Below, piece after piece: positions 1 to 39,470 of a stretch of 54,131 nt of DNA (position 1 is the first letter of the stretch; every line of letters begins with the position of its first letter). The position numbers were made by a program, and so were the translations under genes. This DNA comes from a virus (Duplodnaviria > Caudoviricetes). The notes under the pieces were generated by a model. That model saw only the letters and a list, made by a program, of their open reading frames with translations. It was not told the DNA's origin and searched no databases. The DNA is taken from IMG/VR virus record IMGVR_UViG_3300022929_000037, positions 1-54,131 of that record; one strand, written 5' to 3'.

Positions 1-75
1 AAGTTTGACTGGGGTGCTGACCCTGACTGCAAGATTTGTGAAGGTAACGGAACAGTAACGAGGTATGTAGACTAA
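1..75 (+). CDS. partial hypothetical protein ending in a CxxCxGxG zinc-finger motif
   Basis: Frame 1 reads KFDWGADPDCKICEGNGTVTRYVD-stop; TAATG overlap with next gene. Confidence 0.55.
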   Translation, partial: KFDWGADPDCKICEGNGTVTRYVD

Positions 76-485
76 TGGTAAATCTGATGATATCACGTAA
101 CAAGAACAAGGGTAAGACTATTATTGACTGGGACCTTAATGTCTACTGTCCAGAGCAATGGTATGGGGGTGAGTCCTACTGGGATCACGATCTCTGGAAG
201 ATCAATGCCCGCATATACAGGGACGAAGATATTCCTCTAGACACTGACTATACTATTACTCTGCTAGAGAAAGAAGCTAAGGCCATTGGTCTCGTTGACT
301 GGGGAAATAGTAGTCTAGACAGCGATGACTCTTTGGATGACTGGCTTGATGCTGGCCTAGATGGCTTTATTGACTTATATCACTTTAATGAGCTATACAG
401 AGACAAGTGCAGTAACAGAGTACTGGAGTTCCTGGACACACTGCCACGGTATCTTGAGGACGTGCCTGATCGGATGACGTGGTAA
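75..485 (+). CDS. hypothetical acidic protein
   Basis: 136 aa ORF coupled to upstream stop; no recognised motif. Confidence 0.6.
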   Translation: MVNLMISRNKNKGKTIIDWDLNVYCPEQWYGGESYWDHDLWKINARIYRDEDIPLDTDYTITLLEKEAKAIGLVDWGNSSLDSDDSLDDWLDAGLDGFIDLYHFNELYRDKCSNRVLEFLDTLPRYLEDVPDRMTW

Positions 486-595
486 ATAATTTAAATAGAC
501 TTGGCGGGTCGAGACTACTCCCCGTTGAGAGGACATCCTAGTTAGGGGTAGCTAGAGATGTTCAGGGGGTGTCAAGGGCTTTCCTACTTTCGCTC

Positions 596-624
596 TTGAC
601 ACCCTCACCAGATTTTGGTATAAT
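596..624 (+). promoter_or_regulatory. consensus sigma70/SigA promoter
   Basis: TTGACA 596-601, 17 bp spacer, TATAAT 619-624; AGGAG RBS before ATG 643. Confidence 0.85.
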
Positions 625-642
625 CTAGACAGGAGAATAATA

Positions 643-840
643 ATGAGAAGCAAGGAAGAAAAGATAGCAGAGAAGATAGCAGACAGCCTAGATAGTGTGA
701 CCCTGAATCTAGATGAGGTTGGCTATAACCTTGCTAGAGGAATGAATCTAACATACAACAGGTTACTACTTGTTATTGAGGCTATGGAAGCAGAGAAGGA
801 GGCAATCAGTGTCAGAGAATCTAACACCCCTCTCTTCTAG
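643..840 (+). CDS. hypothetical protein
   Basis: Promoter and AGGAG RBS upstream. Confidence 0.7.
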   Translation: MRSKEEKIAEKIADSLDSVTLNLDEVGYNLARGMNLTYNRLLLVIEAMEAEKEAISVRESNTPLF

Positions 841-1078
841 AGCACAGATTCTAGGAGACCTCTGGATGAATTACAGGGACGACGAAGAGTTCCTGGACTT
901 CATTGAGTATAACGACTTGGGTCTTCCACTAGCCTATGCACTAGCAAACGGCATTGTAGAGAAAGCAACGTCGGCAGCAGAGACTCTAATAGATGAGACG
1001 TTCGAGCTACTACTGGGTGCCTTAGAGATACCACAGGATGAGGGCTTCGAATCATTAGATGATTTACTAGAGATTTGA
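809..1078 (+). CDS. hypothetical acidic protein
   Basis: GTG 809 preceded by AAGGAGG; in frame with ORF 770..1078. Confidence 0.65.
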   Translation: MSENLTPLSSRAQILGDLWMNYRDDEEFLDFIEYNDLGLPLAYALANGIVEKATSAAETLIDETFELLLGALEIPQDEGFESLDDLLEI

Positions 1079-1225
1079 CATCTCTCCCCTTTGGGGGTAC
1101 CGATACACATCTACATACATTTGTCAAGTCTATTACGATAACAATGTTATTACGAAGGAGTATAAAAAACCGTGGAAGTTTTATTTAGGTTTACCTTATC
1201 ACTTAACAGTGTTATAATAGATAGT

Positions 1226-1369
1226 ATGCCAAGGAACTATTTCTTTCAAATGATCCATCCTGATATAGCAAAAGAATATCATGAGGAGCTATCGGCCTTT
1301 ATGCCTAATGTATATAAACGTATTACGAACCTATTTAAATTTACCGCCAATTGGAAGAAAGATAAATAA
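1226..1369 (+). CDS. small hypothetical protein, leaderless
   Basis: TATAAT 1213-1218, 7 nt, then ATG. Confidence 0.45.
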   Translation: MPRNYFFQMIHPDIAKEYHEELSAFMPNVYKRITNLFKFTANWKKDK

Positions 1370-1373
1370 TATT

Positions 1374-1502
1374 ATGAATGATAAAGATATAGACCAGATC
1401 ATTATGGGGGCATTTGTTAAAGCAAAGTGGCTACATAAGTATTTGCCATTTGAATTCAAAGCTAGATGGGATCAGTATAAGTCCCAGGGTATTACGAAGT
1501 AG
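1374..1502 (+). CDS. small hypothetical protein
   Basis: ATG 4 nt after preceding stop; 42 aa. Confidence 0.4.
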   Translation: MNDKDIDQIIMGAFVKAKWLHKYLPFEFKARWDQYKSQGITK

Positions 1503-2001
1503 TCTTTATAACCCCTATAGTAATAAACACCCTATATACAAATACCCTGCTTACATAATATCTATTGATTTAAAAAGACATTACGAACGAATGTGAAAAA
1601 TCGCTGAAAGTTTTATAATGTTTATCTGTTTTGATAGATATGGACAAATTAGATAGGGATTATACCTGATTTTGGCAAATATTTGATTACGGTTTTATAA
1701 CAATGTGTCCTATTATCCACTTCTCTCCACATCACTCCACTTATACATCAAAAAGCAATATGATCAGTAAGATATATATTGGTCTAAACAGCTATAGAAA
1801 TAGCTCTCAGAAGCTCTGTATTCAAATCTGCGGGGGTAATACATTCTCCTGATATGGTGTTATGGTCAAAGCCGTCTATGGTCATTCTATGGCTTATGAG
1901 ACCATATCTCTTTGATAATAAATCCTATAGCGACTATGGCAAAAGCAATCCCTATAAAAGGATATATTTCTATAGGGGCTGCTTCTACTATGGGTGATGT
2001 C

Positions 2002-2241
2002 TTAATCATTACCCTCGTCTATTGATGTGCTCAAACTAAATACCTGGCTCATTGAGATAAACTCAGCTGCCATTCCTTTAGTTACCAAGATTCCAGATTC
2101 AGATACCTCTAGGCTATCTACAGTCTCCTTGGTAAAGACAAGCCTGTTAATCTTGTTTTCGTTTGCTACTTCAACCTCATTTCCAAGGACCACAACTACT
2201 GGTTGTCCGTTTAGAAATGCTGTATTAAAATGATCGAACAT
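2002..2241 (-). CDS. hypothetical protein
   Basis: MFDHF start with AGGA RBS; the longer tracked N-terminus overlaps another small gene. Confidence 0.6.
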   Translation of the reverse strand: MFDHFNTAFLNGQPVVVVLGNEVEVANENKINRLVFTKETVDSLEVSESGILVTKGMAAEFISMSQVFSLSTSIDEGND

Positions 2242-2248
2242 TTGTTTC

Positions 2249-2374
2249 CTATCTCTTACGATTGCATTGTGGGCAGAAATAATGTAAGGCTCCACCCTCA
2301 ACCTTCATAACCATTGTAACATGGCAAGTGTTGCATACTGTATGTATTACTTTGCTAAAATTAATTTTATCCAT
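2249..2374 (-). CDS. 41 aa zinc-ribbon microprotein (not in ORF track)
   Basis: MDKINFSKVIHTVCNTCHVTMVMKVEGGALHYFCPQCNRKR; CxxC...CxxC; AAGGA RBS. Confidence 0.6.
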   Translation of the reverse strand: MDKINFSKVIHTVCNTCHVTMVMKVEGGALHYFCPQCNRKR

Positions 2375-2437
2375 TATATTCCTTCGTATTGGATTATATC
2401 AAGTGCTTGCACTTGGATTACTTCCTACCGCCGAACT

Positions 2438-2563
2438 TTACGCCGAAGCTTTATGTCCATTTATGCAAGTATAATTAAGTATTCCATTATATATCTGTCC
2501 AGCCATCAGGGCATTGCATTTCTCGCAATACCTTTTAGGCATCGACAAAATCTTATTCACCAT
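2438..2563 (-). CDS. 41 aa zinc-ribbon microprotein (not in ORF track)
   Basis: MVNKILSMPKRYCEKCNALMAGQIYNGILNYTCINGHKASA; CxxC...CxxxH. Confidence 0.55.
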   Translation of the reverse strand: MVNKILSMPKRYCEKCNALMAGQIYNGILNYTCINGHKASA

Positions 2564-2663
2564 TGCTCTTGTCTCTAAACTGCTCAGGTGGGTGAGGCTC
2601 CCAATCATCTTCTTCTATGTATTTGATAGGTAGCTCAATCTCTTCTTCTTCATACTGGGTCAT
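2553..2663 (-). CDS. 36 aa acidic microprotein (not in ORF track)
   Basis: MTQYEEEEIELPIKYIEEDDWEPHPPEQFRDKSNGE; fills gap between neighbours, overlapping both. Confidence 0.5.
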   Translation of the reverse strand: MTQYEEEEIELPIKYIEEDDWEPHPPEQFRDKSNGE

Positions 2664-2865
2664 GCTTTTCCCAATCTCCCTTATATCCGAAATTTAATCC
2701 GTGCTTCTCTGAGTATACACAAATCTCATCAGGCTCTAGATATCTTGTTTGTTTATCTGAAGTGATATGGAACATCTTTGTCCCTGCCTTTACCTGGATT
2801 TCTTTTTCCAGATCGTGCATTGATACCAGATAGGCATCAATCTTAGCTTTTACAATTTGTGACAT
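2650..2865 (-). CDS. hypothetical protein
   Basis: Downstream of TTGACG-17-TATAAT promoter (2927-2899) and GGAG. Confidence 0.6.
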   Translation of the reverse strand: MSQIVKAKIDAYLVSMHDLEKEIQVKAGTKMFHITSDKQTRYLEPDEICVYSEKHGLNFGYKGDWEKHDPV

Positions 2866-2958
2866 TCGCACTTACATCTTTCTCCAGTTGATAACTCTAT
2901 TATACAGGCTTCATGATATCCCGTCAAGCACCAACCAAAGCTAGTTGTGCCAGGAAGT

Positions 2959-3327
2959 TTAGAAGCCATCCTTAGCTAATTCTTCCTGCCACTGCTCTTC
3001 TGTCCATGGCTCAAAGTTGATTGGAGTCAGGTACTCTTTTACATTTTTCCAACGAAGATACTCGTTACCCTTACCTTCTTGCTCTGCCCACTTCATCTGC
3101 ATCTCAAGGATAGAGTGGATACGCTGTTGCTCGTATTCAAAACCTTTCTGGTAACCCTCTTCAAAGCCTGCTGTCTTACCATCCTCATAGAGGGTGCTCT
3201 CTGATTCAGCTATCTCGTATCCCTCATCATAGCCATCATCATAGCCAAGGGTAAAATACTCCTGGGCAAGGTCCTGCTGTTCTGGTGTAAGGTCGTCAAA
3301 CCCATCCATGTCCTCTACTGAAAGCAT
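2959..3327 (-). CDS. hypothetical acidic protein with GYxxG repeats
   Basis: GYDDGYDEGYE and GFEEGYQKGFE; AGGAG RBS before MLSVED. Confidence 0.65.
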   Translation of the reverse strand: MLSVEDMDGFDDLTPEQQDLAQEYFTLGYDDGYDEGYEIAESESTLYEDGKTAGFEEGYQKGFEYEQQRIHSILEMQMKWAEQEGKGNEYLRWKNVKEYLTPINFEPWTEEQWQEELAKDGF

Positions 3328-3512
3328 TATAGCTCTCCTATATCCCAAGACTGATCTTCAAACAGTCTTTCATAATACTTATAGTCATTGTGCTGGTTTC
3401 CATTATTTTCATCTGTAATAATCTTATTACGAAGGATCCTTAGAATCCTGATTCGTTCTGACTTTCTTCCGTCTTCAAATGCGACCTTTAGGTCATGTGC
3501 GTTGAAGGACAT
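3327..3512 (-). CDS. hypothetical protein
   Basis: AGGAG RBS before MSFNAH; TAATG coupling to next gene. Confidence 0.6.
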   Translation of the reverse strand: MSFNAHDLKVAFEDGRKSERIRILRILRNKIITDENNGNQHNDYKYYERLFEDQSWDIGEL

Positions 3513-3972
3513 TTCTCTCCTCATGTGTTGGCCAGAAGTACTGGCATTTGTCGCAACAGGGCTGTGCTATATCATTACGAAAAGCATCATAAAACTCTGG
3601 GTCTTTACGATACAGATTAGCTCTATGAGACTCTGTCACTCTGTCTATTTCTTTACGATACCATTTGGGCATACCATTACCCCAGTTCTTAATTGTAGCA
3701 GAACGTAGGGTAATTAGATTACTCATGTTCTTATCTACTTTGATACCACGAATGCGAGCCTGAGCTACCATTGCCATGATATACTCAAACAACGCTGTCT
3801 CATGTCCCTCCCACATCTTGGCTGCTGGGTGATTACGCCAAGCAGCACGTGGGTCTGGGTTATTAAGAACCTTAAGGATTTGGTATCCCTCCAGGATTTG
3901 TTTGTTTAATCGCTTGTTGTCCAGCACCTTTGCTGAGCGATTAAAGTCTTTGTATGGTAAGAATGTTTGCAT
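3493..3972 (-). CDS. pyrimidine dimer DNA glycosylase / endonuclease V-like (MSMEG_6728 family)
   Basis: MQTFLPY, LDNKRLNKQILEGYQIL, WRNHPAAKMW, SHRANLYRKDP, YFWP motifs. Confidence 0.85.
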   Translation of the reverse strand: MQTFLPYKDFNRSAKVLDNKRLNKQILEGYQILKVLNNPDPRAAWRNHPAAKMWEGHETALFEYIMAMVAQARIRGIKVDKNMSNLITLRSATIKNWGNGMPKWYRKEIDRVTESHRANLYRKDPEFYDAFRNDIAQPCCDKCQYFWPTHEERNVLQRT

Positions 3973-4026
3973 GACTATATTTTACACAAAACATGTCTAT
4001 CTGTCAAGTATGTTATAATAAAAATC

Positions 4027-4293
4027 ATGGTAAAAGAATTAATTCACTTTACGATGCCAAACTCTACAGTTTGTGAGTCTATGGAGCCAGTGATCAAAAA
4101 GGTTATGGCTAATAATCCAGACCTACACTACGTCAGAATTGATGTTACGGTTGAGCACGAGCTCTACGATTACTACTCACAAAAATACCCAATTAACTAC
4201 TGCCCTTCATTTCTTGGAATTGTAGACGGCAAGGTTCAGGACGGTCATGTTGGAGAAGCAACGGAGCTTATCCTAGAATCGCTCTTTAGCTAA
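4027..4293 (+). CDS. thioredoxin-like protein with SxxC site
   Basis: FTMPNSTVCESMEP, RIDV, CPSF cis-Pro loop, DGK; TATAAT 7 nt upstream of ATG 4027. Confidence 0.7.
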   Translation: MVKELIHFTMPNSTVCESMEPVIKKVMANNPDLHYVRIDVTVEHELYDYYSQKYPINYCPSFLGIVDGKVQDGHVGEATELILESLFS

Positions 4294-4428
4294 TGGATAC
4301 TAAGTTTAGATATATTATTTTTGAAGATAACATCTACCAGATAACTGTAGATGATTACGATGGTAACCCCTACACCTTTGAGGTTTCTGGGGAGGAAATA
4401 GCAGCCCACTTTAGAAGAGAAAAGCTGC

Positions 4429-4457
4429 TTGACAGGCAAATGGAGGACCTGTATAAT
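4429..4457 (+). promoter_or_regulatory. consensus promoter for a leaderless mRNA
   Basis: TTGACA 4429-4434, 17 bp, TATAAT 4452-4457, ATG 4465. Confidence 0.85.
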
Positions 4458-4464
4458 GGACAGT

Positions 4465-4629
4465 ATGAATGATAATATTGATGATAACAAAAAGATGATT
4501 GACGCTGCCCTTGAGGACTTACAAAAGTTTTTGGCAAATGCTGGTAGAAACACTACTGAGGGAGAAGTTACTGCGTGGCAGCAAGGTTACATTGCTGGCA
4601 TAAACCGTGCTACGGGCGTGAGTCTCTAG
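4465..4629 (+). CDS. hypothetical protein
   Basis: Leaderless start at consensus promoter. Confidence 0.6.
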   Translation: MNDNIDDNKKMIDAALEDLQKFLANAGRNTTEGEVTAWQQGYIAGINRATGVSL

Positions 4630-4819
4630 GTTCTATAGAAGCAGTTTCGTGACAAGAGTAGCAGTAGTGGGTGGGGCTATCTGCAACAACGGTGCAACCG
4701 CCTAGTGCGACCACGTCTTGTCTTGCAAGATCAACCATTTCTGGCGTAGGGTAGCCATATATAATTGGTGCCATATTGGTGTCTCCACAAGCAGGGCATA
4801 CTATTCCATGATAATCCAT
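4610..4819 (-). CDS. zinc-ribbon protein
   Basis: CPACG...IIYGYP...LGGC...CYSC; TATAAT 7 nt upstream. Confidence 0.7.
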   Translation of the reverse strand: MDYHGIVCPACGDTNMAPIIYGYPTPEMVDLARQDVVALGGCTVVADSPTHYCYSCHETASIEPRDSRP

Positions 4820-4850
4820 ATACTTTATTATAACATAGGTATAATAGTAT

Positions 4851-4952
4851 ATGCTACCGATTTACTTCGAATGCCCCGATTGTGACCAAGTATTTTCTGG
4901 AGACACAATTGAAGAGATATTGGTTAAACTGTCAACTCATCACTGTAACTAA
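4851..4952 (+). CDS. 33 aa zinc-finger microprotein (not in ORF track)
   Basis: MLPIYFECPDCDQVFSGDTIEEILVKLSTHHCN; TATAAT 4840-4845 just upstream. Confidence 0.55.
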   Translation: MLPIYFECPDCDQVFSGDTIEEILVKLSTHHCN

Positions 4953-4975
4953 GCAAAATAGTATATAATATACTG

Positions 4976-5662
4976 ATGCAAGAAACTTTAATTACTTTAC
5001 TTGACAATGAGTTTGTTAAAATAAGTTACTTTGATAAAAAATCAGACGACGTTGTCCTGTCATTTTCTAGCACTCCAAGGCTGGCCCAGGGAGAAGAGAT
5101 TGCTGAAGAGCAGTTTGTTGGAACTCTCAGCAATAACAATGTAACTGGCATTTTTATCATAGACAAGCAGTCCTCTTATGGCAACAAGATTAACTTTGGA
5201 GAAATTGCTGCTACCATAGCTCCCATTATTATTAATGCAGAGAGGGTCCACGCTGTTGGGTATTGCATGGGTGGTTTTTTGGCAATACTAATGTCTAAAG
5301 TAATTAGCCTACACTCTGTTGTTGCCATTACCCCGCAGTGGAGTATTCACCCAGACATCCTGCCTGAGTCTAGCTACCTAAGAGAATTTACAAATCGTAT
5401 AGATAGCTGGGAGGTCATAAGTTTAGAGAACAGCTTTAATGATACAACGAAATATTTTATATTTAATAGTAATGATGTTGACGATCAGTATCAAATTCAA
5501 TTTTTCCCAGAACAAGAAAACCTAGAGATCTTTGAGTTTGGTCCAGCCACGGGTCACGACCTGCCAGAGGCTCTGGGTGGCAAGCTAGAAGAATTAATGT
5601 TTGCGTGTATTAATGATAACCCTAAAATGGTAGAAGATTTTATAGACTCTTATTATAAATAA
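4976..5662 (+). CDS. alpha/beta hydrolase fold protein with Cys nucleophile elbow
   Basis: VGYCMGG elbow, C-terminal GHDL. Confidence 0.6.
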   Translation: MQETLITLLDNEFVKISYFDKKSDDVVLSFSSTPRLAQGEEIAEEQFVGTLSNNNVTGIFIIDKQSSYGNKINFGEIAATIAPIIINAERVHAVGYCMGGFLAILMSKVISLHSVVAITPQWSIHPDILPESSYLREFTNRIDSWEVISLENSFNDTTKYFIFNSNDVDDQYQIQFFPEQENLEIFEFGPATGHDLPEALGGKLEELMFACINDNPKMVEDFIDSYYK

Positions 5663-10337: not shown

Positions 10338-11033
10338 TTAGTGCAAAACCAGCGTAAACGGTTCTGGGAAATGCATTTTATGCTTATCGTATAACTCTGA
10401 TGCCCTACACCTATAAGTTTTTGCAGAAGGTTTGCCCATGCTGTGTAAGATTGTTGCCCATCTATCTCCACCAAATATATCCGCAATTTCACTAAAGACT
10501 ACCTTCGCCCATTCTAAATCTGGAATAACAATAAAAAGTATAATTGGCATTTCTTGTGAAATTGTTTTAAGACTCTGAATCTTTTTAGAGTAATCTTCCC
10601 ACTTAACAATTACGCCACCAAAGAAAAACATGTCGCTTGTAATTCCAGATAATACTATTGCAGACAGTAGAGATGAAGTGTTTGGGGTTATCCCGATGTG
10701 AATGTTTTTGGCAACAAGATAGCGAATGAGTCCCCCATATGGGTCAACTATATTGGGGAATCCATCATCACTAATAATTACAATATTTTTATCTATATTA
10801 TTTTCTATGTATGCCATAGAGGTTTGAAGGTCAACCTGGACTGATCCTGAGTCCAAAGTTTCAGCTACATAGAACATCTTTTTGTTGCTAGTATCTACCC
10901 CTAGCTCACCCATCACAAAATCAACTGTTGGCTTTGTTTCACAGAACATGATATCTGCATTACGAAATAACTCTATTTGCTCTGCAGAAAAACCATTTGG
11001 TGTAGTGCTAAAAGATGATAGTGTAACTGGCAC
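10338..11033 (-). CDS. RsmI-like tetrapyrrole-methylase-fold SAM methyltransferase, paralog 1
   Basis: ADIMFCE, ISDDGFPNIVDP (cf. RsmI VSDAGTPxIxDP), SAIVLSG, FFFGG. Confidence 0.7.
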   Translation of the reverse strand: MPVTLSSFSTTPNGFSAEQIELFRNADIMFCETKPTVDFVMGELGVDTSNKKMFYVAETLDSGSVQVDLQTSMAYIENNIDKNIVIISDDGFPNIVDPYGGLIRYLVAKNIHIGITPNTSSLLSAIVLSGITSDMFFFGGVIVKWEDYSKKIQSLKTISQEMPIILFIVIPDLEWAKVVFSEIADIFGGDRWATILHSMGKPSAKTYRCRASELYDKHKMHFPEPFTLVLH

Positions 11034-12576: not shown

Positions 12577-13284
12577 TTATAACATAGATTCTGGGTGTAT
12601 GACCAGGGTAAATGGATCTGGAAAATGCTTTGAATGCTTAGAGAAAAGCTCTGATGCCTTGCATCTATAGGTTCTGGCATTCAACTCTCCCATATTGTGC
12701 ATTATTGTAGACATTCTGTCAGGGCCAAAGGTATCAGATATGCTATCAAATAAGGGCTTAGATTTTTCTAAATTATCTACCACTATAAGCAGTATAGTCG
12801 GCATCTCTAGAGAAATATTTTTCAAAAGGGCCAGCCTATCTGAATAGTCTTCCCACCTAACCAAAATCCCACCAAATACAAATGCATTGCCATCTATCCC
12901 AGACAATATTGTTGCTGACATCACAGCCGAAATGTTTGGTGTTATGTCTACCTGTATATTTTTTTCTACTAACAAGGCTATAACCCCAGCATATGGATCT
13001 GTTATATTCGGAAAACCTTCATCACTTACGATTACTATATTTTGATTAATATTATTTAATATAATATCTAGTGCATCGTAATCATCCAAGAAATGGTCCT
13101 CGCCCACAGATTGAATTGTTGAAATAATTCTTTTACCTTCTATGTCTATCCCAAGCTTATCCATCACTTCTGTAAAACGATCATGTGTTTCACAAAATAC
13201 TATGTCGGCATTTGCAAATAGCTCAACTTGTTCTTGAGAAAAGGCTTTAGGATATAGGCTAAATGATGATACGGTTATGCTCAT
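12577..13284 (-). CDS. RsmI-like SAM methyltransferase, paralog 2
   Basis: VSDEGFPNITDP; shares WEDYS, TYRCxASEL, HFPxPFTLV with 10338..11033. Confidence 0.7.
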   Translation of the reverse strand: MSITVSSFSLYPKAFSQEQVELFANADIVFCETHDRFTEVMDKLGIDIEGKRIISTIQSVGEDHFLDDYDALDIILNNINQNIVIVSDEGFPNITDPYAGVIALLVEKNIQVDITPNISAVMSATILSGIDGNAFVFGGILVRWEDYSDRLALLKNISLEMPTILLIVVDNLEKSKPLFDSISDTFGPDRMSTIMHNMGELNARTYRCKASELFSKHSKHFPDPFTLVIHPESML

Positions 13285-14906
13285 AGCAAAATCACCCTTT
13301 TAATTTCTGGGCAATACAAATATTTAATTCCAGATTCTTTACAAGTTCTGATTGCATCGTCCATATTGCGAACAAGCGTGTCTCCTGCTAGATTAAAAGA
13401 TGTATTCAACAACATAGGAACTCCAGCAATAATTCCAAACTCTCTTATAAGGTGGTAGTAGTGAGCATTATCCTTGATAGATACTGTTTGAATTCGTGAT
13501 GTTCCATCATTATGCTGAAGTGCTGGAACTATATCTTTTTTATCTTTAAGAGTTTCTACGGCATACATCATATGTGGACTGTCGCTCAGGGTCGCTAGGT
13601 CAAACCACTCGCTTGCCTTATTAACCAATACACTTCCAGCAAATGGCCTAAAGAATTCTCTCTTTTTAATTTTGTTAACCTTGTCTCTACCATCTGGGTC
13701 TCTTGGGTCATAGAGTATTGACCTATTCCCCAGAGCCCTAGGTCCAGACTCTTCTTTGCCCTGGTAGAGTGCTACAATGTTTTGGTCTGCTAGTAGTTGA
13801 GCAACATCCTTGTAGGACACCTCCTTTGACTCTACACCAATTGGGATATCGTAGTTTGCGTGCTCCCCCAAGTAAAGTAAGTTAATTGGCTTTACAGATT
13901 TTTCAGTAAGCTTTGTGTATAGGTATTGTGCAGCACCTATAGAAGTTCCAGAGTCACTAGAGTTTGGCTCAACATAAAAGTTAATGTCTGGAAATTCTTT
14001 TAAATATTTATAATTATTTACACAATTTAGGAAGTATCCACCACTTAGACATATATTTGTGTTGCCCCAAAATGACAGTGCTTTACGAATAAGGCGAGCG
14101 GTAAACTCAAATGAGTCTGTTTGTGTCCTATAAGCAAGGTCCTCGTTAGATAGGTCTGAGTCTAGAATTGCTGGGTTTGCACCCTCTTCATCGAAAGCCC
14201 GTGGGTGTTCTGGGTTATCAGAGCCGTAGGCAGAGAGGCCCATGACCTTTCCTGCATTATGATAAGAGCCAAATATCTTAATACCTACAGCTGAGAATAG
14301 CTTTCCCAAGCTCATATTTCTGTCATATACAGTATAGTTGCAACCAATATCAGATAGGTCTTGGGAGCATTTCGAAAAATATGGCATGTGGCCTAGCTCC
14401 TCCTGGTATTCCTCATACTGATCTTTGTCAAACTGCTTGATAAGGTTCTTGTGAGTTGCAATAATGTTTGTTTGACGGGCAATATACATTGTTTCAGACT
14501 CTCTATATAAAGTTTCTTCGTCATAGAACGCCTGCCCAGCACCGTCAATAACCAGGACAGCTGCTTCGTCAAACTTGGAGTTATTAAATGCAACAGTTGC
14601 ATGGGCCAGATGGTGGTCTTTCATCCAATGTGCTTTTGGCATGCTGGGGCTTTCAAAATGTTTTTGTTTGCCACAAGCAAATAGCAATGTATTTAGCAGC
14701 ATCTCGGCATTGAGATCATATGGAAATGCCCCAACAAAAATTACATGGTTAGGCTCTAGTTCAATTCCTTTTGCAAAGCTATGCAAAACACCAGTAGTAT
14801 GTTTTTGATGAGTAACACGCTCCTCTTCTTGGTAAAAGATTATCTTACCATCCTCAATTACGCACACACTGCCGTCGTGCGATAGGTTGACACCCATTAT
14901 TTTCAT
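13281..14906 (-). CDS. carbamoyltransferase (NodU/CmcH family)
   Basis: SHDGS, EER, HHLAHA, GKVMGLSAYG, GPRALGNRS, KREFFRPFA, LNTSFN. Confidence 0.92.
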   Translation of the reverse strand: MKIMGVNLSHDGSVCVIEDGKIIFYQEEERVTHQKHTTGVLHSFAKGIELEPNHVIFVGAFPYDLNAEMLLNTLLFACGKQKHFESPSMPKAHWMKDHHLAHATVAFNNSKFDEAAVLVIDGAGQAFYDEETLYRESETMYIARQTNIIATHKNLIKQFDKDQYEEYQEELGHMPYFSKCSQDLSDIGCNYTVYDRNMSLGKLFSAVGIKIFGSYHNAGKVMGLSAYGSDNPEHPRAFDEEGANPAILDSDLSNEDLAYRTQTDSFEFTARLIRKALSFWGNTNICLSGGYFLNCVNNYKYLKEFPDINFYVEPNSSDSGTSIGAAQYLYTKLTEKSVKPINLLYLGEHANYDIPIGVESKEVSYKDVAQLLADQNIVALYQGKEESGPRALGNRSILYDPRDPDGRDKVNKIKKREFFRPFAGSVLVNKASEWFDLATLSDSPHMMYAVETLKDKKDIVPALQHNDGTSRIQTVSIKDNAHYYHLIREFGIIAGVPMLLNTSFNLAGDTLVRNMDDAIRTCKESGIKYLYCPEIKRVILL

Positions 14907-19288: not shown

Positions 19289-19293
19289 GAGGG

Positions 19294-19503
19294 CTACCTC
19301 ACAAGCTTATGTGGAATCTCCCAGCCCTTTGGACCACACTCAAAGATATCCTGAGAGTGCCAAAGACCTTCTACGAAAGCACCATTCTTTTTCATCCAGG
19401 CTGTCGGATGCGGCTTTGAAAAAACAACATCCCATCCACGCCAGTAAAGCATTTTGTTTCTGCTTACGATTTTTTCCATTTGTTCGAGAGATGTAACTAA
19501 CAT
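19294..19503 (-). CDS. hypothetical protein
   Basis: GGAG RBS before MLVTS; Trp-rich. Confidence 0.6.
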   Translation of the reverse strand: MLVTSLEQMEKIVSRNKMLYWRGWDVVFSKPHPTAWMKKNGAFVEGLWHSQDIFECGPKGWEIPHKLVR

Positions 19504-22991: not shown

Positions 22992-23970
22992 TCTTCTCCT
23001 GTTTTGCTAGATATTCTATTATATCAGAAAAGGGCTGATAATATTTTCTAGCACTGACTATTGACATATAGTGATCGTGCATTCCTATTGCCTTATAAAA
23101 GTCTTCTGGTGATAATTCTGAGTCAATCTTATAGGGTCCAAGGTTATATAAAAAGAAACGTATAGTCTCATAAAGAACTTCTGGACTGTCTTCTACTGCA
23201 GCAAATTGTTTATTTTTTTCAAACTTAAATGGATTCCAGTTATGATATGCGTATACCCTCTTATATGATCTGTAGGCCTCCCAGCCCCTCATAAATATTA
23301 AATAAGACTGTAGTGGCTCGTCGTTAAACATTTTTACATCTTCTATAAAGAATAAGTTATGCTCAAAATATTCCTTGGGAGCAAAGAACAGGTCCATCGA
23401 TGTATAGTATGTTTTGACAAAGTCTTGGTGTGGAGATTTTACTAAGGGAGAACTTACATTAGTTAAAAAGTCGAGCTCTCCGTTTGGCTCTATAGAGTAA
23501 TCAAACTGCGTTATGTGGTGCAGTGCCACCTCTCCATCGCTTCTACAATTGCATGGCTCTGTTACTGGAGGCTCGCTGTTTGACATTTGACAAGAGATTA
23601 CGACCTTATCGTTACCAGTTTTTAGCCTTAGCTCATTATAGTCGTCAAGAATAAAAACATCCCATCCGCTAGTAAATGTCATGTGAGCATCTATAGATAA
23701 CACATAGTCATAATTTGTTGACAGCGATGCTAGGTCATTTCTTACCTGAATTAGTCCTGGCCTTTCTGGGCCATAATCAATTATAGTAAGATTGTTGTAT
23801 ATAGATAAGTCTAGGTTGATACGCTGATGCTGAAGCCCTACAGCAAAATATATCCTTTCTGGATACGTTGCTTTGTCTATTGCTCCCTGTATTGTTCCAA
23901 TTAGTGATGGATCTTCGTATGATGGTATGATGACCAATATTGTTTTATTATTTGATAACCTTTGTTCCAT
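22972..23970 (-). CDS. GT60-like glycosyltransferase, paralog 2
   Basis: TILVIIPSYEDPSL, PERIYFAV, SIDAHMTFTSGWD. Confidence 0.72.
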   Translation of the reverse strand: MEQRLSNNKTILVIIPSYEDPSLIGTIQGAIDKATYPERIYFAVGLQHQRINLDLSIYNNLTIIDYGPERPGLIQVRNDLASLSTNYDYVLSIDAHMTFTSGWDVFILDDYNELRLKTGNDKVVISCQMSNSEPPVTEPCNCRSDGEVALHHITQFDYSIEPNGELDFLTNVSSPLVKSPHQDFVKTYYTSMDLFFAPKEYFEHNLFFIEDVKMFNDEPLQSYLIFMRGWEAYRSYKRVYAYHNWNPFKFEKNKQFAAVEDSPEVLYETIRFFLYNLGPYKIDSELSPEDFYKAIGMHDHYMSIVSARKYYQPFSDIIEYLAKQEKNGSNRV

Positions 23971-25387
23971 ATTCTTGTTCCCATTTTATAACGTCCGCCT
24001 CATCATTAAGAAGTGGCTGGCCCTTAATATTAAGGCTAGTGTTTAGTAGTACTGGAACCCCAGTCTCTTCATAAAAACGTCTTAGGAGGGCATACAGGCC
24101 TGGATGCTGACGCTTATTTACGGTCTGAACCCTAGAAGTTCCATCCGCATGAACCACAGAAGGTATTTCACTTGGCCTCTTGCATACAAAAGTGTATTGC
24201 ATATATGGTGATGCTGCCTTCATATCAAACCAGTCATTAGCAAATTCCTCTAGAACCACTGGGGCAAATGGCCTAAACAGCTCTCTCTTCTTAATCTTAT
24301 TGACCTTATCCTTAATGTTTGGATCTCGTGGGTCTGCCAGGATACTTCTGTTGCCTAGTGCTCTTGGACCATATTCTGCCCTACCGTATACAACTGGTGC
24401 AACTCCATCAGATAGGATTGCTGCTAGTGCCTGCTCTACTGGATACTTCCTCTTAGGCATATCATATCCCAAGTATGGTCCCCTCCAGGTAAGGTGCTTT
24501 CCATAGGCTGCAGCTGCTGCTCCCAAAGAGCTTCCTGCATCTCCAGGGTTTGGCATAATCCAGACATCAGAGAACATGTCCCATAGCTTCGTATTAGCAG
24601 AAGCGTTTAGTGCACAGCCACCCATAAACACTAGGTTATGCTTGCCAGTCTTATTAACTGCAAACTCCATAAACTCCATAAGCCTTTGCTCATAGACCCT
24701 TTGAACTGCTGCTGCAATATCAAACTTATTTCTGTCATTGACCTCTTCATTCCAATCAAGAATGCCTTTGTGAAAGTTATATCTTTGACCCTTAATGCTG
24801 TCAAAGTATGAGTTTACCTTGCTGTAGTACTTGTTTGCTTTGCCATATGCTGCCATGCCCATCATGATATACTCTTCTTCGTTTGGCTTGAGCCCAAGCA
24901 GCTGTGTGAATGCAGAGTAGAAAAGACCAAAGCTAAATGGATAATTCTTTTTGTATACCTGCTTAATTCTATCGCCTTCACCAACCCAAATGGTAGAGGT
25001 ATTCCATTCTCCTATGGCATCCAATACCACAATTGTAGCATCCTGGAATCTGCTTGTGTAATAGCCTGCAGCTGCATGTGAGTAGTGGTGCTTAAATGTT
25101 TTTACTGGGAGATCTTTGAGCTCAGGATGATTGATATACCTTGGGCTGTCTCCCCCAAAGCCCCCACTAATTGCAATTCTACTTTTCTTTAATAGTGGCT
25201 TTTCATAATAGGCAATCATGTCTGGCTTGCCATATCTCAATGCATCTTCAATTAGTTTATCATTAGTAAACCAATCATTCTTTTCTTTACTATACCGCTC
25301 AGCGTGCCCAGCAAAAAGAATATTGCCGTTCTCAATTAGCGACACTGAAGCATCATGTGTTGTCTCATTAATTCCAAGAATTTTCAT
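23948..25387 (-). CDS. carbamoyltransferase (NodU/CmcH family), paralog 2
   Basis: HDAS, HHYSHA, EYIMMGMAAYG, GPRALGNRS, RPFAP, LNTSLN. Confidence 0.92.
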   Translation of the reverse strand: MKILGINETTHDASVSLIENGNILFAGHAERYSKEKNDWFTNDKLIEDALRYGKPDMIAYYEKPLLKKSRIAISGGFGGDSPRYINHPELKDLPVKTFKHHYSHAAAGYYTSRFQDATIVVLDAIGEWNTSTIWVGEGDRIKQVYKKNYPFSFGLFYSAFTQLLGLKPNEEEYIMMGMAAYGKANKYYSKVNSYFDSIKGQRYNFHKGILDWNEEVNDRNKFDIAAAVQRVYEQRLMEFMEFAVNKTGKHNLVFMGGCALNASANTKLWDMFSDVWIMPNPGDAGSSLGAAAAAYGKHLTWRGPYLGYDMPKRKYPVEQALAAILSDGVAPVVYGRAEYGPRALGNRSILADPRDPNIKDKVNKIKKRELFRPFAPVVLEEFANDWFDMKAASPYMQYTFVCKRPSEIPSVVHADGTSRVQTVNKRQHPGLYALLRRFYEETGVPVLLNTSLNIKGQPLLNDEADVIKWEQEYGTKVIK

Positions 25388-25470
25388 TAATAGATATACT
25401 TTCTAGGCTTAAGTGCTTTACGATTTTTCCACTTCCAAAATCGAAATTTTATTTGCTTAATTATTTTCAT
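25387..25470 (-). CDS. 27 aa basic peptide coupled to carbamoyltransferase (not in ORF track)
   Basis: MKIIKQIKFRFWKWKNRKALKPRKYIY; TAATG overlap with carbamoyltransferase start. Confidence 0.55.
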   Translation of the reverse strand: MKIIKQIKFRFWKWKNRKALKPRKYIY

Positions 25471-26269
25471 GGTATTTATTATACATTAATTCTGCAGCAT
25501 ATTTATGGAATCCAGTTCCCCAGTGGGCACCATCTTCTGCATAAAAATAGTTTGGGCTGCCATCGTCATTATCATATAGGTAGCTCTCCAGATTAAGATC
25601 GTCGAAGTTATAAAAAGTTTTAAAGTTAAACTTATTGAATATATCCCTCATTGCTGGAGAATTGTATGATGTTGATACAAGGTTTATGCCATATAATTCC
25701 ATAAGCTTTTCAAACATTGAGTATGTCTCATACAGATAAGGGGTCATGCTGTCGATTATTTCTAGAACATCCTGCGTAAAGCTAGTATTATGATATGAAT
25801 ATTTATCTGGGTTAACTACTGCATCGTAGTAGCCGTCTAATTTTTGGTGCAGCCTGATTCCCCTAAAGACATCTGGAAACATTATAAATATTGTATCTGG
25901 CTTGCCATAAGTATCTATATATCTCAGAATTAAGGATATGATGCCGTTAAAGCTTGCACCTTCCCTACCAATATTTATTGCATGTATTTCTTTGCCTATG
26001 TCTTCAGATAGCTTACTGGCTAACAGATTAGGCCAAATATTACTGTCATCGCTTATTCCAGTTCCAAAGGTATTGGAGCATCCAGCAAACAGCATGTGCA
26101 CTTTGCTGGGGTTGACAACAAACTCTTCTGACCTATACCTTAATGAGTTCAGGACAAGGCTGCTATCTCCTTGATCATTTTTAGGCATCTTACCGTCAAA
26201 GCCATACAGGCGATCCTGCTCAGTAGGACCAAACCTGTCATCGAAGTTTTTAAGATAGTTGTAGTTCAT
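25457..26269 (-). CDS. SGNH/GDSL-like protein, paralog 1
   Basis: FAGCSNTFG, NIGREGAS, YGKPD, DGAHWG. Confidence 0.65.
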   Translation of the reverse strand: MNYNYLKNFDDRFGPTEQDRLYGFDGKMPKNDQGDSSLVLNSLRYRSEEFVVNPSKVHMLFAGCSNTFGTGISDDSNIWPNLLASKLSEDIGKEIHAINIGREGASFNGIISLILRYIDTYGKPDTIFIMFPDVFRGIRLHQKLDGYYDAVVNPDKYSYHNTSFTQDVLEIIDSMTPYLYETYSMFEKLMELYGINLVSTSYNSPAMRDIFNKFNFKTFYNFDDLNLESYLYDNDDGSPNYFYAEDGAHWGTGFHKYAAELMYNKYHENN

Positions 26270-26272
26270 TAG

Positions 26273-27133
26273 CTAGCTGCCCTTCCATGATTCAGCCCCC
26301 GTAAGCAACTCGTAGAATTTGCTTGCATAAAAATCTTGTTCTGCAATACCTGGATGGGAGTCATCCATAGCCTTAAGCATAATATCTTTATATTTACCAT
26401 TATACACTAAGCCAAACCTATAGAGGTGATCTAGAAACATGTCCTCATCTATTTGATATAAATATTTTATTTTATTTCTGCCATCATCTTTGCTTGCCCT
26501 AGCGACAGAGAAAGATCTGTCCCATGTCATTGCAAAGGCATTAATGTTATTGTTTTCTATAAAGCGAATTGCAGCCTCTACCCCGTTCCACATGTCCCTT
26601 TCTGGCTCTGGAAAAAGAATAAATAAGTAGTCTGGTTTGCCGTATCGAATAATATACTCATCGATTAAATTGATAATATCTGACATAGATGCGGAAGGCT
26701 TTCCTAGATTAAAATATCCTGATGTCTTGGTGCTATGGCTTATAGACGTATAAAGTTTGTGTGCCCATAAGAATTCTTCTGGCATAGAATCTCCAAAAGT
26801 TAAAGAACATCCAGCAAAAAGAATATGCTTTCCAGAGTGGTCTGCAGTAAACTCATCACAACGAAAGCCCTCAGAGTTAATTTTATAAAAATCTTTGCTA
26901 CTTAGCCCTAGCTTATTTAAATATTTTTTAGTTACAAAAAATCCATAGGAGTCTACCCAAGGACGTGAAACAGACTTATGAAATCGTTTTTCTGAGTTTT
27001 CTTTTTCATTTAGGCCAAGCTCCGTGAGCTCTGCTAGGATCAGTTCTTTGACCTGATCAAACTCTTTGTGGTATTTTTCATGGCGGCTCATGTAAACTTC
27101 ATTAAGCTTCTTTGGCAAGCTAAATAGGTCCAT
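26273..27133 (-). CDS. SGNH/GDSL-like protein, paralog 2
   Basis: FAGCSLTFG, NLG, YGKPD, DDSHPG. Confidence 0.65.
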   Translation of the reverse strand: MDLFSLPKKLNEVYMSRHEKYHKEFDQVKELILAELTELGLNEKENSEKRFHKSVSRPWVDSYGFFVTKKYLNKLGLSSKDFYKINSEGFRCDEFTADHSGKHILFAGCSLTFGDSMPEEFLWAHKLYTSISHSTKTSGYFNLGKPSASMSDIINLIDEYIIRYGKPDYLFILFPEPERDMWNGVEAAIRFIENNNINAFAMTWDRSFSVARASKDDGRNKIKYLYQIDEDMFLDHLYRFGLVYNGKYKDIMLKAMDDSHPGIAEQDFYASKFYELLTGAESWKGS

Positions 27134-28097
27134 GCAAATCTCTCCAAATATTATATGCAAAGTTATAATAAAAGTCGTGTTCTGCAATTCCTGGGTGAAC
27201 AATATCGAATGCCCTCAACATAAATTTTGCAAATTTATTATTCTTGTTAATCTTTATGAAGGTCATCATGTGGGCCTGGAGTTCTTTTTCAGCAAATTGA
27301 TATAGAGTATTATTCGTCTGCTGTCTTGGGTCAAGCCAGGGGCTTTGGTAAAACACATCATTAAAATTAGGATTTTGATCAAGGTACGCACCGCCCTTGA
27401 AAGAGTGTATGTCCCAAGAAAACATTATAAGTTTGATATTGTTTGTCTCTGCATATTGAATAAGAGCATTGTGCATTGGAAGAATTACAGAGTGCAGACT
27501 CTCTATTGGAATGCCTGCGTCAATTGACCTCTCTAGGTCTGGGAAATTAATAAAGATATATTCTGGATTTCCGTATAGCTCAATATACTTAAAGACTTGA
27601 TAATAAATATCTAAATGGTTAAATCCTGGTCCAGCAACATTGTAATATCCGCTGGTAGGAACTTGCTTACTAATAGATTTATATACCATTTTAGACCAGG
27701 TTAAGTCAATGGGTAGCCCGTCACCAAAAGTTATGGAGCATCCAGCAAACAAAATATGAAGTTTGTCGTGTGAGTCGGAGAACTCGTCGCACCTTAGCCC
27801 GTCTGAGTTTAAGTGGTAAAAATTATCTATTGTCTCGCCAAAGGTCTCAAGATTCTTTTTAGTAAAGTAAAGATTGAATGGAGACATTAAGGCTGGCATT
27901 AGCTTTGAGTATTTCTGAGACTTACTCTCATGGACTTTGCTAAGCGGAAAATTTGTTTCTATGTAGTCAAAAAGCTCTTCCGCTTTATCAAACCATTCCG
28001 TGTAGTCTTCTCCATATTGCTGGTAAAACTCCAGAGTTGACTGGGAAGGATTGAAACCACTTAAATCTTTATACGCCTTGCTCATGTTTTTGAGCAT
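27120..28097 (-). CDS. SGNH/GDSL-like protein, paralog 3
   Basis: FAGCSITFG, YGNPE, DIVHPG. Confidence 0.65.
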   Translation of the reverse strand: MLKNMSKAYKDLSGFNPSQSTLEFYQQYGEDYTEWFDKAEELFDYIETNFPLSKVHESKSQKYSKLMPALMSPFNLYFTKKNLETFGETIDNFYHLNSDGLRCDEFSDSHDKLHILFAGCSITFGDGLPIDLTWSKMVYKSISKQVPTSGYYNVAGPGFNHLDIYYQVFKYIELYGNPEYIFINFPDLERSIDAGIPIESLHSVILPMHNALIQYAETNNIKLIMFSWDIHSFKGGAYLDQNPNFNDVFYQSPWLDPRQQTNNTLYQFAEKELQAHMMTFIKINKNNKFAKFMLRAFDIVHPGIAEHDFYYNFAYNIWRDLHGPI

Positions 28098-31699: not shown

Positions 31700-31701
31700 A
31701 G

Positions 31702-31775
31702 AGCCTCCTGTCAGATTCGAACTGACGACCTACGCATTACAAGTGCGTTGCTCTGGCCAACTGAGCTAAGGAGGC
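31702..31775 (-). tRNA. tRNA-Thr(UGU)
   Basis: GCCTCCT acceptor, TAGCTCAG D-arm, ACGCA-CTTGTAA-TGCGT anticodon arm, TTCGAAT T-loop; no CCA. Confidence 0.93.
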
Positions 31776-31779
31776 AGTG

Positions 31780-31853
31780 CGACCTGGATGGGACTTGAAC
31801 CCACGACCCCCACCGTGACAGGGTGGTGCTCTAACCAACTGAGCTACCAGGCC
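31780..31853 (-). tRNA. tRNA-Asp(GUC)
   Basis: CCACC-CTGTCAC-GGTGG anticodon arm, TTCAAGT T-loop; no CCA. Confidence 0.93.
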
Positions 31854-31857
31854 TAAG

Positions 31858-31929
31858 CTCCCCTCCGTGGATTCGAACCACGAACCTTAGAGTTAACAGC
31901 TCTCTGCTCTGCCATTGAGCTAGAGGGGA
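31858..31929 (-). tRNA. tRNA-Asn(GUU)
   Basis: TCCCCTC acceptor, AGAG-CTGTTAA-CTCT anticodon arm, TTCGAAT T-loop; no CCA. Confidence 0.92.
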
Positions 31930-34441: not shown

Positions 34442-34639
34442 TTATTCCTTAGGGTTTCTAAGCCTAAAAGTGATTATCCACAAAGCAAGGGTTCCTAGGA
34501 TTACGTAGCCAGTAACGGTCTTCGCTGATCCCTCCAAAACAATCCATGCCACAAACATACCAACTAAGGTCCACGCCTCAGATACTACATCTGTAAATAT
34601 ATTCTTGATTCCTGTGAATAGTTTCTTTATGAACTTCAT
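34442..34639 (-). CDS. small membrane protein
   Basis: Two TM segments; TAATG coupling. Confidence 0.65.
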   Translation of the reverse strand: MKFIKKLFTGIKNIFTDVVSEAWTLVGMFVAWIVLEGSAKTVTGYVILGTLALWIITFRLRNPKE

Positions 34640-36309
34640 TATATTTTCCTCCTAGCACCACCAGATGGAGCTGAGGCTCCAGCAGATACTGCAATATTAC
34701 CTGCGATAACAGATGCTACGACAATCTCTTCTGCTCGCTCTCGCTGTTCAGGAGCAATGTCAGCACCAATATTTCCCAAATCATTCATAACCTCTAGCAC
34801 CTGTCCAGCCACAGCACCAACTACTGGAAGGGCAGCAAGCTCTTCTGGCAAGTCTGGGTCATCTGCTTCTGCAGCTATAGCAAGCAATACAAGTGCTGCC
34901 TCATACTCTTCTGAGTCTTTCTCTGCAGTTGCAAACTTATTCATAGCCATGACAGTTAGCTCTCCTGCTAGCTCAAGGTTTTGCTCTGCATTGCCATCGT
35001 CCTCAACTATTGCCTGAAGCTGATCAATCTTGTTTCTTTGTTCTTGGATAGTATCATTAGCATCTCCAAGCTGCTTTACGAGAGTATCTATCTTTGCCAG
35101 TGCATCGTCAAGCTGCTTCTTGGTTGTGTCATTCTTAATCTTTAGCTCTTCTATTTGTCCAAGTGCCGTAGCTAGCTTTGCCTCTAGCTCCTCTACCCTT
35201 GCCTGTGAGGCTGCTAGCTGCTTAGTGAGATCAGTAGACTTAGCTCTTGCAATCTCTAGATCCGATTTTGACTTTGCCAATGTTTCTAGGGCAGTTGCAA
35301 GCTGTTCTTCTGTGCTTGTTACTTTACCATTTAGCTCGTCAATAGTTGTTTTAAGTATGTTAATAGTTTCTTCCGCACTAACTAGTTCTGCTTTTTTGGC
35401 CTCTATGTCTGCATTGGCCTTGGCTAGTGCCTCTGTTAGCGAGTCTATCTTAGATATATACCCTGCAATTGTTGCATTACGATCATCTATGGTTATTTTA
35501 TAAGAGTCAATTGCTGAATTAAGATCGCTAATGGTTTTGTTTTGGTCTTCAATTACTGCTGTTTGATCTGCAATTACAACCTCAGACCAGGAAACATACT
35601 CTTGGTATGATGTATTAATTGAATCAGCAGTCTCGCCTAGAGCTTTATAGTCATCTAGCAGCGTAGCATAGAGGGATGAAAGCTGGTCATACTGTGCCTG
35701 GAGTGCATCGTAGTCTTCTTGGGATACTGCTGGCTCTGCTACCACAGCACCTCCAGAATGCCAGATGGCACGCTCATAGTCTGTGCTACTATTTAATCCA
35801 AGGGTAGCACCTACACGCCAACCACCACAAATACTAGGCTCTGGATTACACCAGGTTCCAAGGTGCCATGACATCCTAAGCGGGTCGCTCATTTCGCTGG
35901 TATCGGCAGAGCTTTGATAGATTGATGCTGTTGGTGCAAATCCCATAGACTGAGTTGGGTTTAGATACCAGTAAGTGCCATTGTTTTCTACTGTTTCGTT
36001 ATATCCAGTCTGAGAGAAAACTACGCTGCTTTCTCCAGCTGCCAATAACATATAGGTATCAGAATTGGTTGCTCCTGCTGCATAAAGAAGAGATGCACCA
36101 GTACAGCTGTCATAAATATTTTGTAGGGTATCTGTCTCTCCATAAAGACTTGACCAGCACAGAGTCCATCCACCATCAATTAGGGTTTGCTTAGACACAT
36201 TTGTCTGTGGTCCAGATGGGTAGTATGAGGGTGCATTTGATCCACCTGCTGGTGTTGCGATAAGCACAACAGCCATCAGGGCTGATAAAAGTATAAACCT
36301 AAGCTTAAT
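34639..36309 (-). CDS. secreted or membrane protein with long coiled coil; probable ATT start
   Basis: Globular N-domain, long heptad region, C-terminal hydrophobic segments; extension to ATT 36309 gives a complete signal peptide. Confidence 0.65.
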   Translation of the reverse strand: MKLRFILLSALMAVVLIATPAGGSNAPSYYPSGPQTNVSKQTLIDGGWTLCWSSLYGETDTLQNIYDSCTGASLLYAAGATNSDTYMLLAAGESSVVFSQTGYNETVENNGTYWYLNPTQSMGFAPTASIYQSSADTSEMSDPLRMSWHLGTWCNPEPSICGGWRVGATLGLNSSTDYERAIWHSGGAVVAEPAVSQEDYDALQAQYDQLSSLYATLLDDYKALGETADSINTSYQEYVSWSEVVIADQTAVIEDQNKTISDLNSAIDSYKITIDDRNATIAGYISKIDSLTEALAKANADIEAKKAELVSAEETINILKTTIDELNGKVTSTEEQLATALETLAKSKSDLEIARAKSTDLTKQLAASQARVEELEAKLATALGQIEELKIKNDTTKKQLDDALAKIDTLVKQLGDANDTIQEQRNKIDQLQAIVEDDGNAEQNLELAGELTVMAMNKFATAEKDSEEYEAALVLLAIAAEADDPDLPEELAALPVVGAVAGQVLEVMNDLGNIGADIAPEQRERAEEIVVASVIAGNIAVSAGASAPSGGARRKI

Positions 36310-36370
36310 AAGTTATCACTCCTAGTTGGGGTAGCTAGACGTATTCTTATACTATTATAAGTGATTATAT

Positions 36371-36407
36371 AAATAAATAGGGGCATAGCCTCTTGACCAT
36401 GCCCCTA
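36371..36407 (-). terminator. intrinsic terminator after nrdF
   Basis: TAGGGGCATGG / CTATGCCCCTA stem followed by TTTATTT. Confidence 0.75.

Positions 36408-36425: not shown

Positions 36426-39470
<3,045 letters not shown>

Follow-up and report, generated by a model that had tools for sequence, protein, structure and literature searches.

The c4 RNA of phages P1 and P7 is processed from the transcript of its own target, from a position a short distance upstream, and serves lysogenic immunity. According to a published review (PMC12197685), sequences exposed in the loops of c4 form base pairs with a phage mRNA at its ribosome-binding region, which stops translation, and RNA and target differ together between these two related phages. 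Of the known cases, c4 is the closest in working principle to the locus described here, a structured phage RNA with predicted loop pairing at a ribosome-binding site. In contrast to c4, the target lies 36 kb away and on the other strand, and Rfam gives no match to c4 in sequence or structure.

CopA/CopT of plasmid R1, RNA I/RNA II of ColE1 and RNAII of pMV158 are cis-encoded, and therefore perfectly complementary to their targets. The locus resembles these plasmid systems in that stem-loops would meet loop to loop, with pairing then spreading into the stems, but its partners are separate loci that must co-evolve. DicF is a prophage-encoded small RNA that acts in trans on ftsZ by short, imperfect pairing near the start of the distant mRNA. 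The pairing considered here is also near the start of a distant mRNA, although the target of DicF is a host gene and the predicted target here is a gene of the phage itself. To our knowledge, few phage RNAs regulate genes of their own phage in trans, and those known come from temperate coliphages.

The locus lies in a viral record that was analysed at its full length of 54,131 bases (referred to as the window; 41% G+C, estimated completeness 47% in IMG/VR) and that derives from an uncultured phage of about 110–125 kb. We hold, with a little better than even confidence, that its hairpin at 531–563 belongs to a trans-acting antisense RNA directed at the leader of a distant phage gene. The element that contains the hairpin is a new RNA element, having no Rfam family, of a known regulatory kind. 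For this uncultured family of large phages, which occurs in salt-marsh samples, the comparisons yield a prediction open to testing, comprising a conserved RNA element, a defined partner and natural compensating variants usable as swap mutants.

Genomic context

Bases 1–2600 of the window hold small + strand ORFs without a family, and nearly all remaining genes are on the minus strand, including the replication and nucleotide genes for a DnaB-like helicase, primase, DNA polymerase III alpha, RecA and NrdI/NrdE/NrdF. Three tRNA genes are located at 31701–31929. By DnaE, Streptomyces cluster BE phages come closest among cultured phages, with 56% amino-acid identity; BLAST of positions 1–3000 against cultured phage records returned no DNA match, and near-identical DNA is present in salt-marsh metagenomes. 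No sign of lysogeny was seen among the genes of the window. The features of the two loci are collected in Table 1.

Table 1. Features of the hairpin element and of the target locus in the window
Feature	Coordinates	Strand	Remarks
Upstream small gene	75..485	+	136 aa, no family; a homologue precedes the element in relatives
Hairpin HP0	500..529	+	Variable, co-varying stem; in helix 1, 6/7 pairs changed on both sides
Hairpin HP1	531..563	+	14 bp, GGGG tetraloop, one bulged A
Site 1	536..556	+	Inner stem and loop of HP1, matching site 2
Hairpin HP2	565..606	+	15-bp stem, conserved loop UUUCCUACUUUC; 3' arm holds the -35 hexamer of the next promoter
Sigma-70-type promoter	596..624	+	TTGACA, 17 nt, TATAAT, TG before the -10; 12-of-12 consensus
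Downstream small gene	643..840	+	65 aa, no family
Target gene	34639..36309	-	Signal peptide, N-terminal domain of about 170 aa, coiled coil
Probable ATT start codon	36307..36309	-	9 nt after the Shine-Dalgarno
Shine-Dalgarno AGGAG	36319..36323	-	Read from sequence; 4/5 bases inside site 2
Site 2	36320..36339	-	Part of the 5' leader complementary to the + strand RNA of site 1
-10-like TATAAT	36354..36359	-	Ahead of the leader, conserved in relatives; no -35-like hexamer scored
Intrinsic terminator behind nrdF	36378..36407	-	
nrdF, ribonucleotide reductase small chain	36426..37391	-	Anchor for locating site 2 in relatives

Two matching sites in the window

Site 1 (TCCTAGTTAGGGGTAGCTAGA) and site 2 (TCCTAGTTGGGGTAGCTAGA) differ solely by one extra A. 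A preliminary description had reported this match between two non-coding stretches, the first in a long hairpin with a GGGG loop and the second in the minus-strand leader of the gene starting at 36309, over its Shine-Dalgarno, and each of these observations was borne out. The gapped pattern CTAGTT-N0-2-GGGGTAGCTAG occurs at exactly two places in the window, sites 1 and 2, both on the + strand, and 0 of 100 dinucleotide-preserving shuffles contained two or more matches. Since the window is the whole record, there is no third copy of the pattern, and the search for further copies in the full genome that the description had proposed ended with these two. Site 1 falls in a 157-nt gap between the ORFs at 75–485 and 643–840, and site 2 between the nrdF stop (36426) and the gene start at 36309.

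The two genes run in opposite directions and the repeat is direct, so that a + strand RNA of site 1 would be antisense to the leader. On the minus strand, site 2 reads TCTAGCTACCCCAACTAGGA followed by G, and it therefore covers the AGGA of the Shine-Dalgarno AGGAG. Across the whole window, the HP1 tip finds its best non-self partner in site 2, at −35.9 kcal/mol compared with −25.1 for the runner-up, and the two loops, GGGG in HP1 and CCCC in the leader hairpin, are complementary. When the element is co-folded with the window leader, HP1 opens, HP0 and HP2 stay folded and −20.7 kcal/mol is gained, as against −0.7 ± 1.4 for 200 shuffled leaders (best −7.7). The complementarity to the translation start region of the target thus exceeds chance, as it does in base-pairing regulatory RNAs. 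In the window the pairing includes the 5' arm of HP1, because both partners are hairpins that share one stem.

A conserved three-hairpin element

Site 1 is the tip of the middle hairpin in a conserved three-hairpin element of about 107 nt (500–606, + strand). Relatives were reached by three routes, namely the upstream protein, nrdF (80 of 320 loci kept) and DNA patterns; a search for relatives of the 65-aa downstream protein found none. Seventeen elements were aligned, leaving out two that duplicate others (L185, identical to that of G020, and L190, identical to that of G016) and one cut by a contig end (G036).

RNAalifold predicts 29 pairs for the 17 elements, 15 of them with compensating double changes. 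Standard pairs fill 97.1% of the pair cells, compared with 86.8% in column shuffles (0/500 reach the observed value) and 40–55% when the pairing partners are slid. In helix 3 of HP1, four of the six pairs have changes on both sides. These compensatory changes strongly back the structure of the element. The outer stem of HP1 varies in sequence almost everywhere, yet all 14 distinct versions still fold, with 11–17 bp, and the loop is GGGG in 13 of them, that of G030 being different. In this respect the element, like regulatory RNAs, has a conserved fold with the pairing sequence exposed in a loop.

The + strand folds at −60.5 kcal/mol (z −6.1) and the minus strand at −40.7 kcal/mol (z −3.1). A hand tally of the pair table of the 17-element alignment gives 59 G-U cells against 5 A-C cells, and one position is a G-U pair in 16/17 elements. 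The better fold and the G-U pairs identify the + strand as the functional one, as RNA or possibly as single-stranded DNA. The element overlaps a promoter whose TTGACA is invariant across all 17 aligned elements.

At the gathering score, Rfam finds only the three tRNAs in the window and no family for the element, c4 included; for positions 400–700 at E values up to 10 there were chance-level matches to unrelated families only. No intrinsic terminator was scored in 486–642, HP1 and HP2 having no T run behind them. Of 49 related viral records, 13 contain the element according to a covariance model built from the alignment, among them diverged copies in G034, G052 and G054; the model found none in the complete record G021. 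The element is also present on further contigs. One viral pattern-scan candidate (L181) was discarded because its covariance-model score is that of a chance match, and a host clue sought with the HP2/−35 pattern in the genomes of 185,579 species was likewise given up, its four places scoring at chance level.

Several departures from the common layout were seen. The G030 contig has two copies about 870 nt apart (31803–31921 and 32673–32779), the second with a GGGG loop, a different third hairpin and no promoter. L006, the closest relative in the upstream gene (90% amino-acid identity), retains the HP2 part only, without HP0 and HP1; aligning its positions 600–659 with 500–606 of the window shows that a segment of about 57 nt with these two hairpins is missing. 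The short similar words GTCGAG and GTCAAG flank the HP0-HP1 segment in the window, which suggests that the difference is an indel, of either direction. Near the tip of HP0, GAG...CUC pairs and the C that follows are conserved in 15–16 of the 17 elements (CUCC in 15/17), and this conserved tip looks like a protein-binding or second pairing module.

The target gene and its leader

The protein encoded by the target gene has only weak, coiled-coil-type matches in Pfam and PHROGs, and no usable Atlas neighbour. The ATT at 36309 opens the frame for a typical signal peptide, the hydrophobic core of which contains the first ATG (36276); gene callers place the start of the window protein at this later ATG. 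Behind nrdF, an ORF of the ATT type (ATA in the L028 type) beginning 4–14 nt after a GGAG was found at 45 of 81 loci (including L016–L095). In 30 of these 45, the stretch from the preceding in-frame stop to the hydrophobic core is free of ATG, GTG and TTG, and for most of the remaining 15 the sole candidate is the GTG inside GGAGTG. Judged from these sequence comparisons, ATT is the probable start of the target gene, and it would add a second, independent layer of translational control.

Behind nrdF, a conserved module runs from a terminator through a −10-like TATAAT, for which no −35 was scored, and a short leader with GGAG after it to the signal-peptide gene. Most leaders contain ACCCC, within surroundings that differ in sequence between lineages, and in most relatives there is no leader dyad at site 2. 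In G033, G036 and G039 the leader is predicted to fold by pairing of CAUUCC with GGAGUG, with ACCCC in the loop; at −4 to −7 kcal/mol, the predicted leader folds are weak.

Co-variation of the two sites in relatives

Fourteen genomes provide both the element and the leader: G000 (the window), G002, G010, G012, G016, G020, G030, G032, G033, G034, G036, G039, G043 and G052. Dropped from the comparison were G058 (element identical to that of G016), G061 (leader not located), G054 and L006 (HP2 only), and the contigs without nrdF (G055–G057, G059 and G060). In a partner scan, the 25-nt HP1 tip was compared with both strands of 19 oriented contigs, which included 12 of the 14 genomes (all except G034 and G052), by an ungapped prefilter followed by RNAduplex. 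Among non-self partners, the genome's own leader is the best in G000, G002, G033 and G036, the third in G010 and the fifth in G032.

A second comparison was anchored on the GGGG of the HP1 loop and the CCCC of the leader. In the same six genomes, the loop and 3' arm pair with the own leader over 11–16 contiguous bp (12 in G000, 16 in G002, 12 in G033, 14 in G036, 11 in G010 and 12 in G032), in four sequence versions, each compensated on both sides. Examples are GGGGTAGCTAGA/TCTAGCTACCCC in the window, GGGGTAGCTGG/CCAGCTACCCC in G033, GGGGTAGCCA/TGGCTACCCC in G010 and GGGGTTGGCTAT/ATAGCCAACCCC in G032; G002 has two differences, both G-U-compatible. At positions +1 to +8 past the loop, 47 of 48 cells pair across the six genomes, with 2–4 pair types at +2 and at +4 to +8. 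The matched genomes have 93–483 CCCC sites each, of which only 2–5 extend equally, counting the leader itself and the antisense strand of the element. When pairing energies were compared across all 14 leaders in a cross-genome matrix, each of the six matched genomes had its own leader among the top three, whereas in the others the own leader came fourth or lower, down to last. A midpoint-rooted tree of the single gene nrdF spreads the six over at least three clades.

The remaining eight of the 14 genomes have a weak match or none, and no extended pairing. G039, G012, G020 and G052 reach 6–7 bp at most including the loop, which is background level, and pairing with the leader is weak in G030 and G034. 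The script value for G034 was rejected as an artefact that arose from another GGGG, located in the stem, and a CCCC deep within the coding sequence; the genome was counted as weak since the pairing is 7 bp by eye. The leaders of G016 and G043 have no CCCC, and G021, the complete record without the element, likewise has a leader without CCCC. The proposal that relatives keep the two sites matched, with a GGGG hairpin complementary to the minus-strand leader, is thus supported in 6/14 genomes, where the complementarity co-varies through four versions, and not in the other 8/14.

In G016, G043 and G058, the 5' arm and loop of HP1 match instead codons 10–15 of a small membrane protein gene, at about 19293–19312 in G016 (20 nt at 95%) and about 34370–34380 in G043 (11 nt; oriented contigs). 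This gene has no clear homologue in the window. The match, occurring in genomes with a CCCC-less leader, may reflect a target switch.

Proposed mechanism and alternative explanations

The conserved structure, its strand, the complementarity and the co-variation of both sites are directly supported. As mirrored changes occur at loci 27–36 kb apart with unrelated flanks, they argue for direct pairing of the two sequences, and together with the antisense orientation they favour a trans-acting antisense RNA that starts by GGGG/CCCC loop contact. On the sequence comparisons, this appears to be the best-supported reading, for a pairing kept in only part of the phage family.

The production of the element RNA, its timing and the repressive outcome are what we infer beyond this. 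The element, situated between two small genes in a promoter-dense and probably early region, would be transcribed by read-through from promoters further upstream. The GGGG tetraloop would make the first contact, with the leader CCCC of the mRNA of the signal-peptide gene, encoded behind nrdF on the opposite strand, and pairing would then spread down the 3' arm of HP1. In the window the 5' arm would join in as well, and the resulting duplex of 20 bp, interrupted by one bulged A, would bury the AGGA of the Shine-Dalgarno 9 nt before the ATT and so keep ribosomes from binding; a double-strand RNase might also cut this duplex. Burial of the AGGA makes repression the likely outcome in this phage. 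The labels 'early' and 'late' for the two loci are assigned from gene content and promoter type only.

In relatives, strong + strand promoters lie ahead of the element. Neither a promoter nor a terminator belonging to the element itself was found, and the sequence directly upstream of it is the 3' end of a conserved gene. Four RNA-library runs were followed over positions 1–5000, as contigs only, which give no strand, ends or levels and in which uncovered parts are uninformative. Such contigs cover 336–574 (X24) and 364–508 (X20), with DNA carry-over possible. One contig has an adapter-joined end at 588, within the HP2 loop; as a single observation, this was left unused.

The same pairing could instead activate or stabilise the mRNA, if the 3' arm of HP1 captured a leader arm that sequesters the Shine-Dalgarno or protected the mRNA 5' end. 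The co-varying loop and 3' arm do pair with the 5' side of the leader, upstream of the Shine-Dalgarno, and in G033, G036 and G039, where CAUUCC/GGAGUG folds with an ACCCC loop are predicted, the antisense pairing would occupy the sequestering 5' arm, by which the Shine-Dalgarno would be freed and not buried. However, the complementarity in the window and G002 runs on into the AGGA or AGG of the Shine-Dalgarno, and the leader folds concerned are weak; activation is judged unlikely. A role of the element confined to its own transcript, as a processing site, a stabiliser, or a terminator or attenuator before the internal promoter, would leave the likeness to the leader without function. Its position between cistrons and its overlap, in every one of the 17 aligned elements, with the −35 of the promoter that follows are in keeping with such a role, as are the eight of 14 genomes that lack an extended leader match and the conservation of HP0 and HP2, for which site 2 is not needed. 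It would leave unexplained why the HP1 3' arm, in each of its four versions, has a mirrored counterpart in the own leader 27–36 kb away, and neither HP1 nor HP2, lacking T runs, was scored as a terminator; we regard it as rather unlikely.

Operators of one repressor also co-vary between phages, and this counts in favour of both sites being DNA operators of one co-evolving phage-specific protein. Both sites adjoin promoters, site 1 ending 40 nt upstream of the −35 hexamer and site 2 lying between the −10-like box and the Shine-Dalgarno. The form in which operators had been proposed in the preliminary description, as CTAG-Nn-CTAG sequences, did not survive comparison, as both CTAGs are kept in one of 17 elements, that of the window, site 2 has no dyad in most relatives, and no further CTAG-Nn-CTAG copies were found in the window. 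The freely changing yet always paired outer stem of HP1 and the G-U pair fixed in 16/17 elements are RNA signatures, and there are only two copies per genome, so that operators of any form are quite improbable. Least probable of all, and by our estimate very improbable, is that an old duplication or a small insertion left the match behind and that it now serves no function. L006, which lacks the HP0-HP1 segment of about 57 nt, and the short similar words around the gap are compatible with such an event, but decay after duplication would not mirror differences in separate lineages; gene conversion is unlikely because the flanks of sites 1 and 2 are unrelated.

The HP2 loop and ribosome-binding sites

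Beyond the antisense pairing of HP1, a wider role may be envisaged for the element as an all-RNA, multi-target switch, in which HP1 would control the ATT-initiated secreted protein and the HP2 loop would sequester the ribosome-binding sites of early genes and shut them off. We consider this doubtful. The ribosome-binding sites concerned would have the form GAAAGTAGG/A, then 3–9 nt, then ATG. The invariant HP2 loop (580–591), TTTCCTACTTTC, is complementary over 8–14 nt to ribosome-binding sites of the type GAAAGTAG(G/A) with ATG or GTG 3–9 nt further on. Such complementarity was seen in G039, G056, G055, G059, G002, G010, G016 and G030, in + strand genes mostly within a few kb upstream of the element (up to seven in G039 and G056). 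None was found in the window, which starts too near the element to show such genes. The pyrimidine-rich HP2 loop presumably resembles the anti-Shine-Dalgarno tail of 16S rRNA.

A second contact, between the HP2 loop and the first codons of the target, is present in G033, G036, G039, G016 and G043, and was not found in the window; these five genomes share a homologous N-terminus, and the contact therefore represents one event at most. What looked like co-variation between the G010 HP2 loop and one ribosome-binding site was set aside, the same site variant being common in genomes with the usual loop.

Other features of the record

Further genes on the minus strand encode many 2OG-Fe(II) oxygenases, carbamoyltransferases, sugar-nucleotide enzymes, ThyX, Hsp20 and an M23/LysM peptidase. 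Paralogues occur at 10338–11033 and 12577–13284 (methylase-like) and at 13281–14906 and 23948–25387 (carbamoyltransferase), and 25457–28097 is a paralogous triplet of three unknown ORFs. These paralogues, set among the many 2OG-Fe(II) oxygenase and sugar-nucleotide genes, form a large auxiliary modification module. The 591-aa protein at 39899–41674, which adjoins nrdI inside the block for replication and nucleotide metabolism, has weak PHROG matches to terminase large subunits (E 1e-11). In the small-ORF region, a word beginning TATTACGAAG is repeated at 1148–1171, 1490–1513, 1579–1602 and 3425–3448, and ATTACGA also lies within the spacers of + strand promoters in relatives; the repeated word may be an early-region operator.
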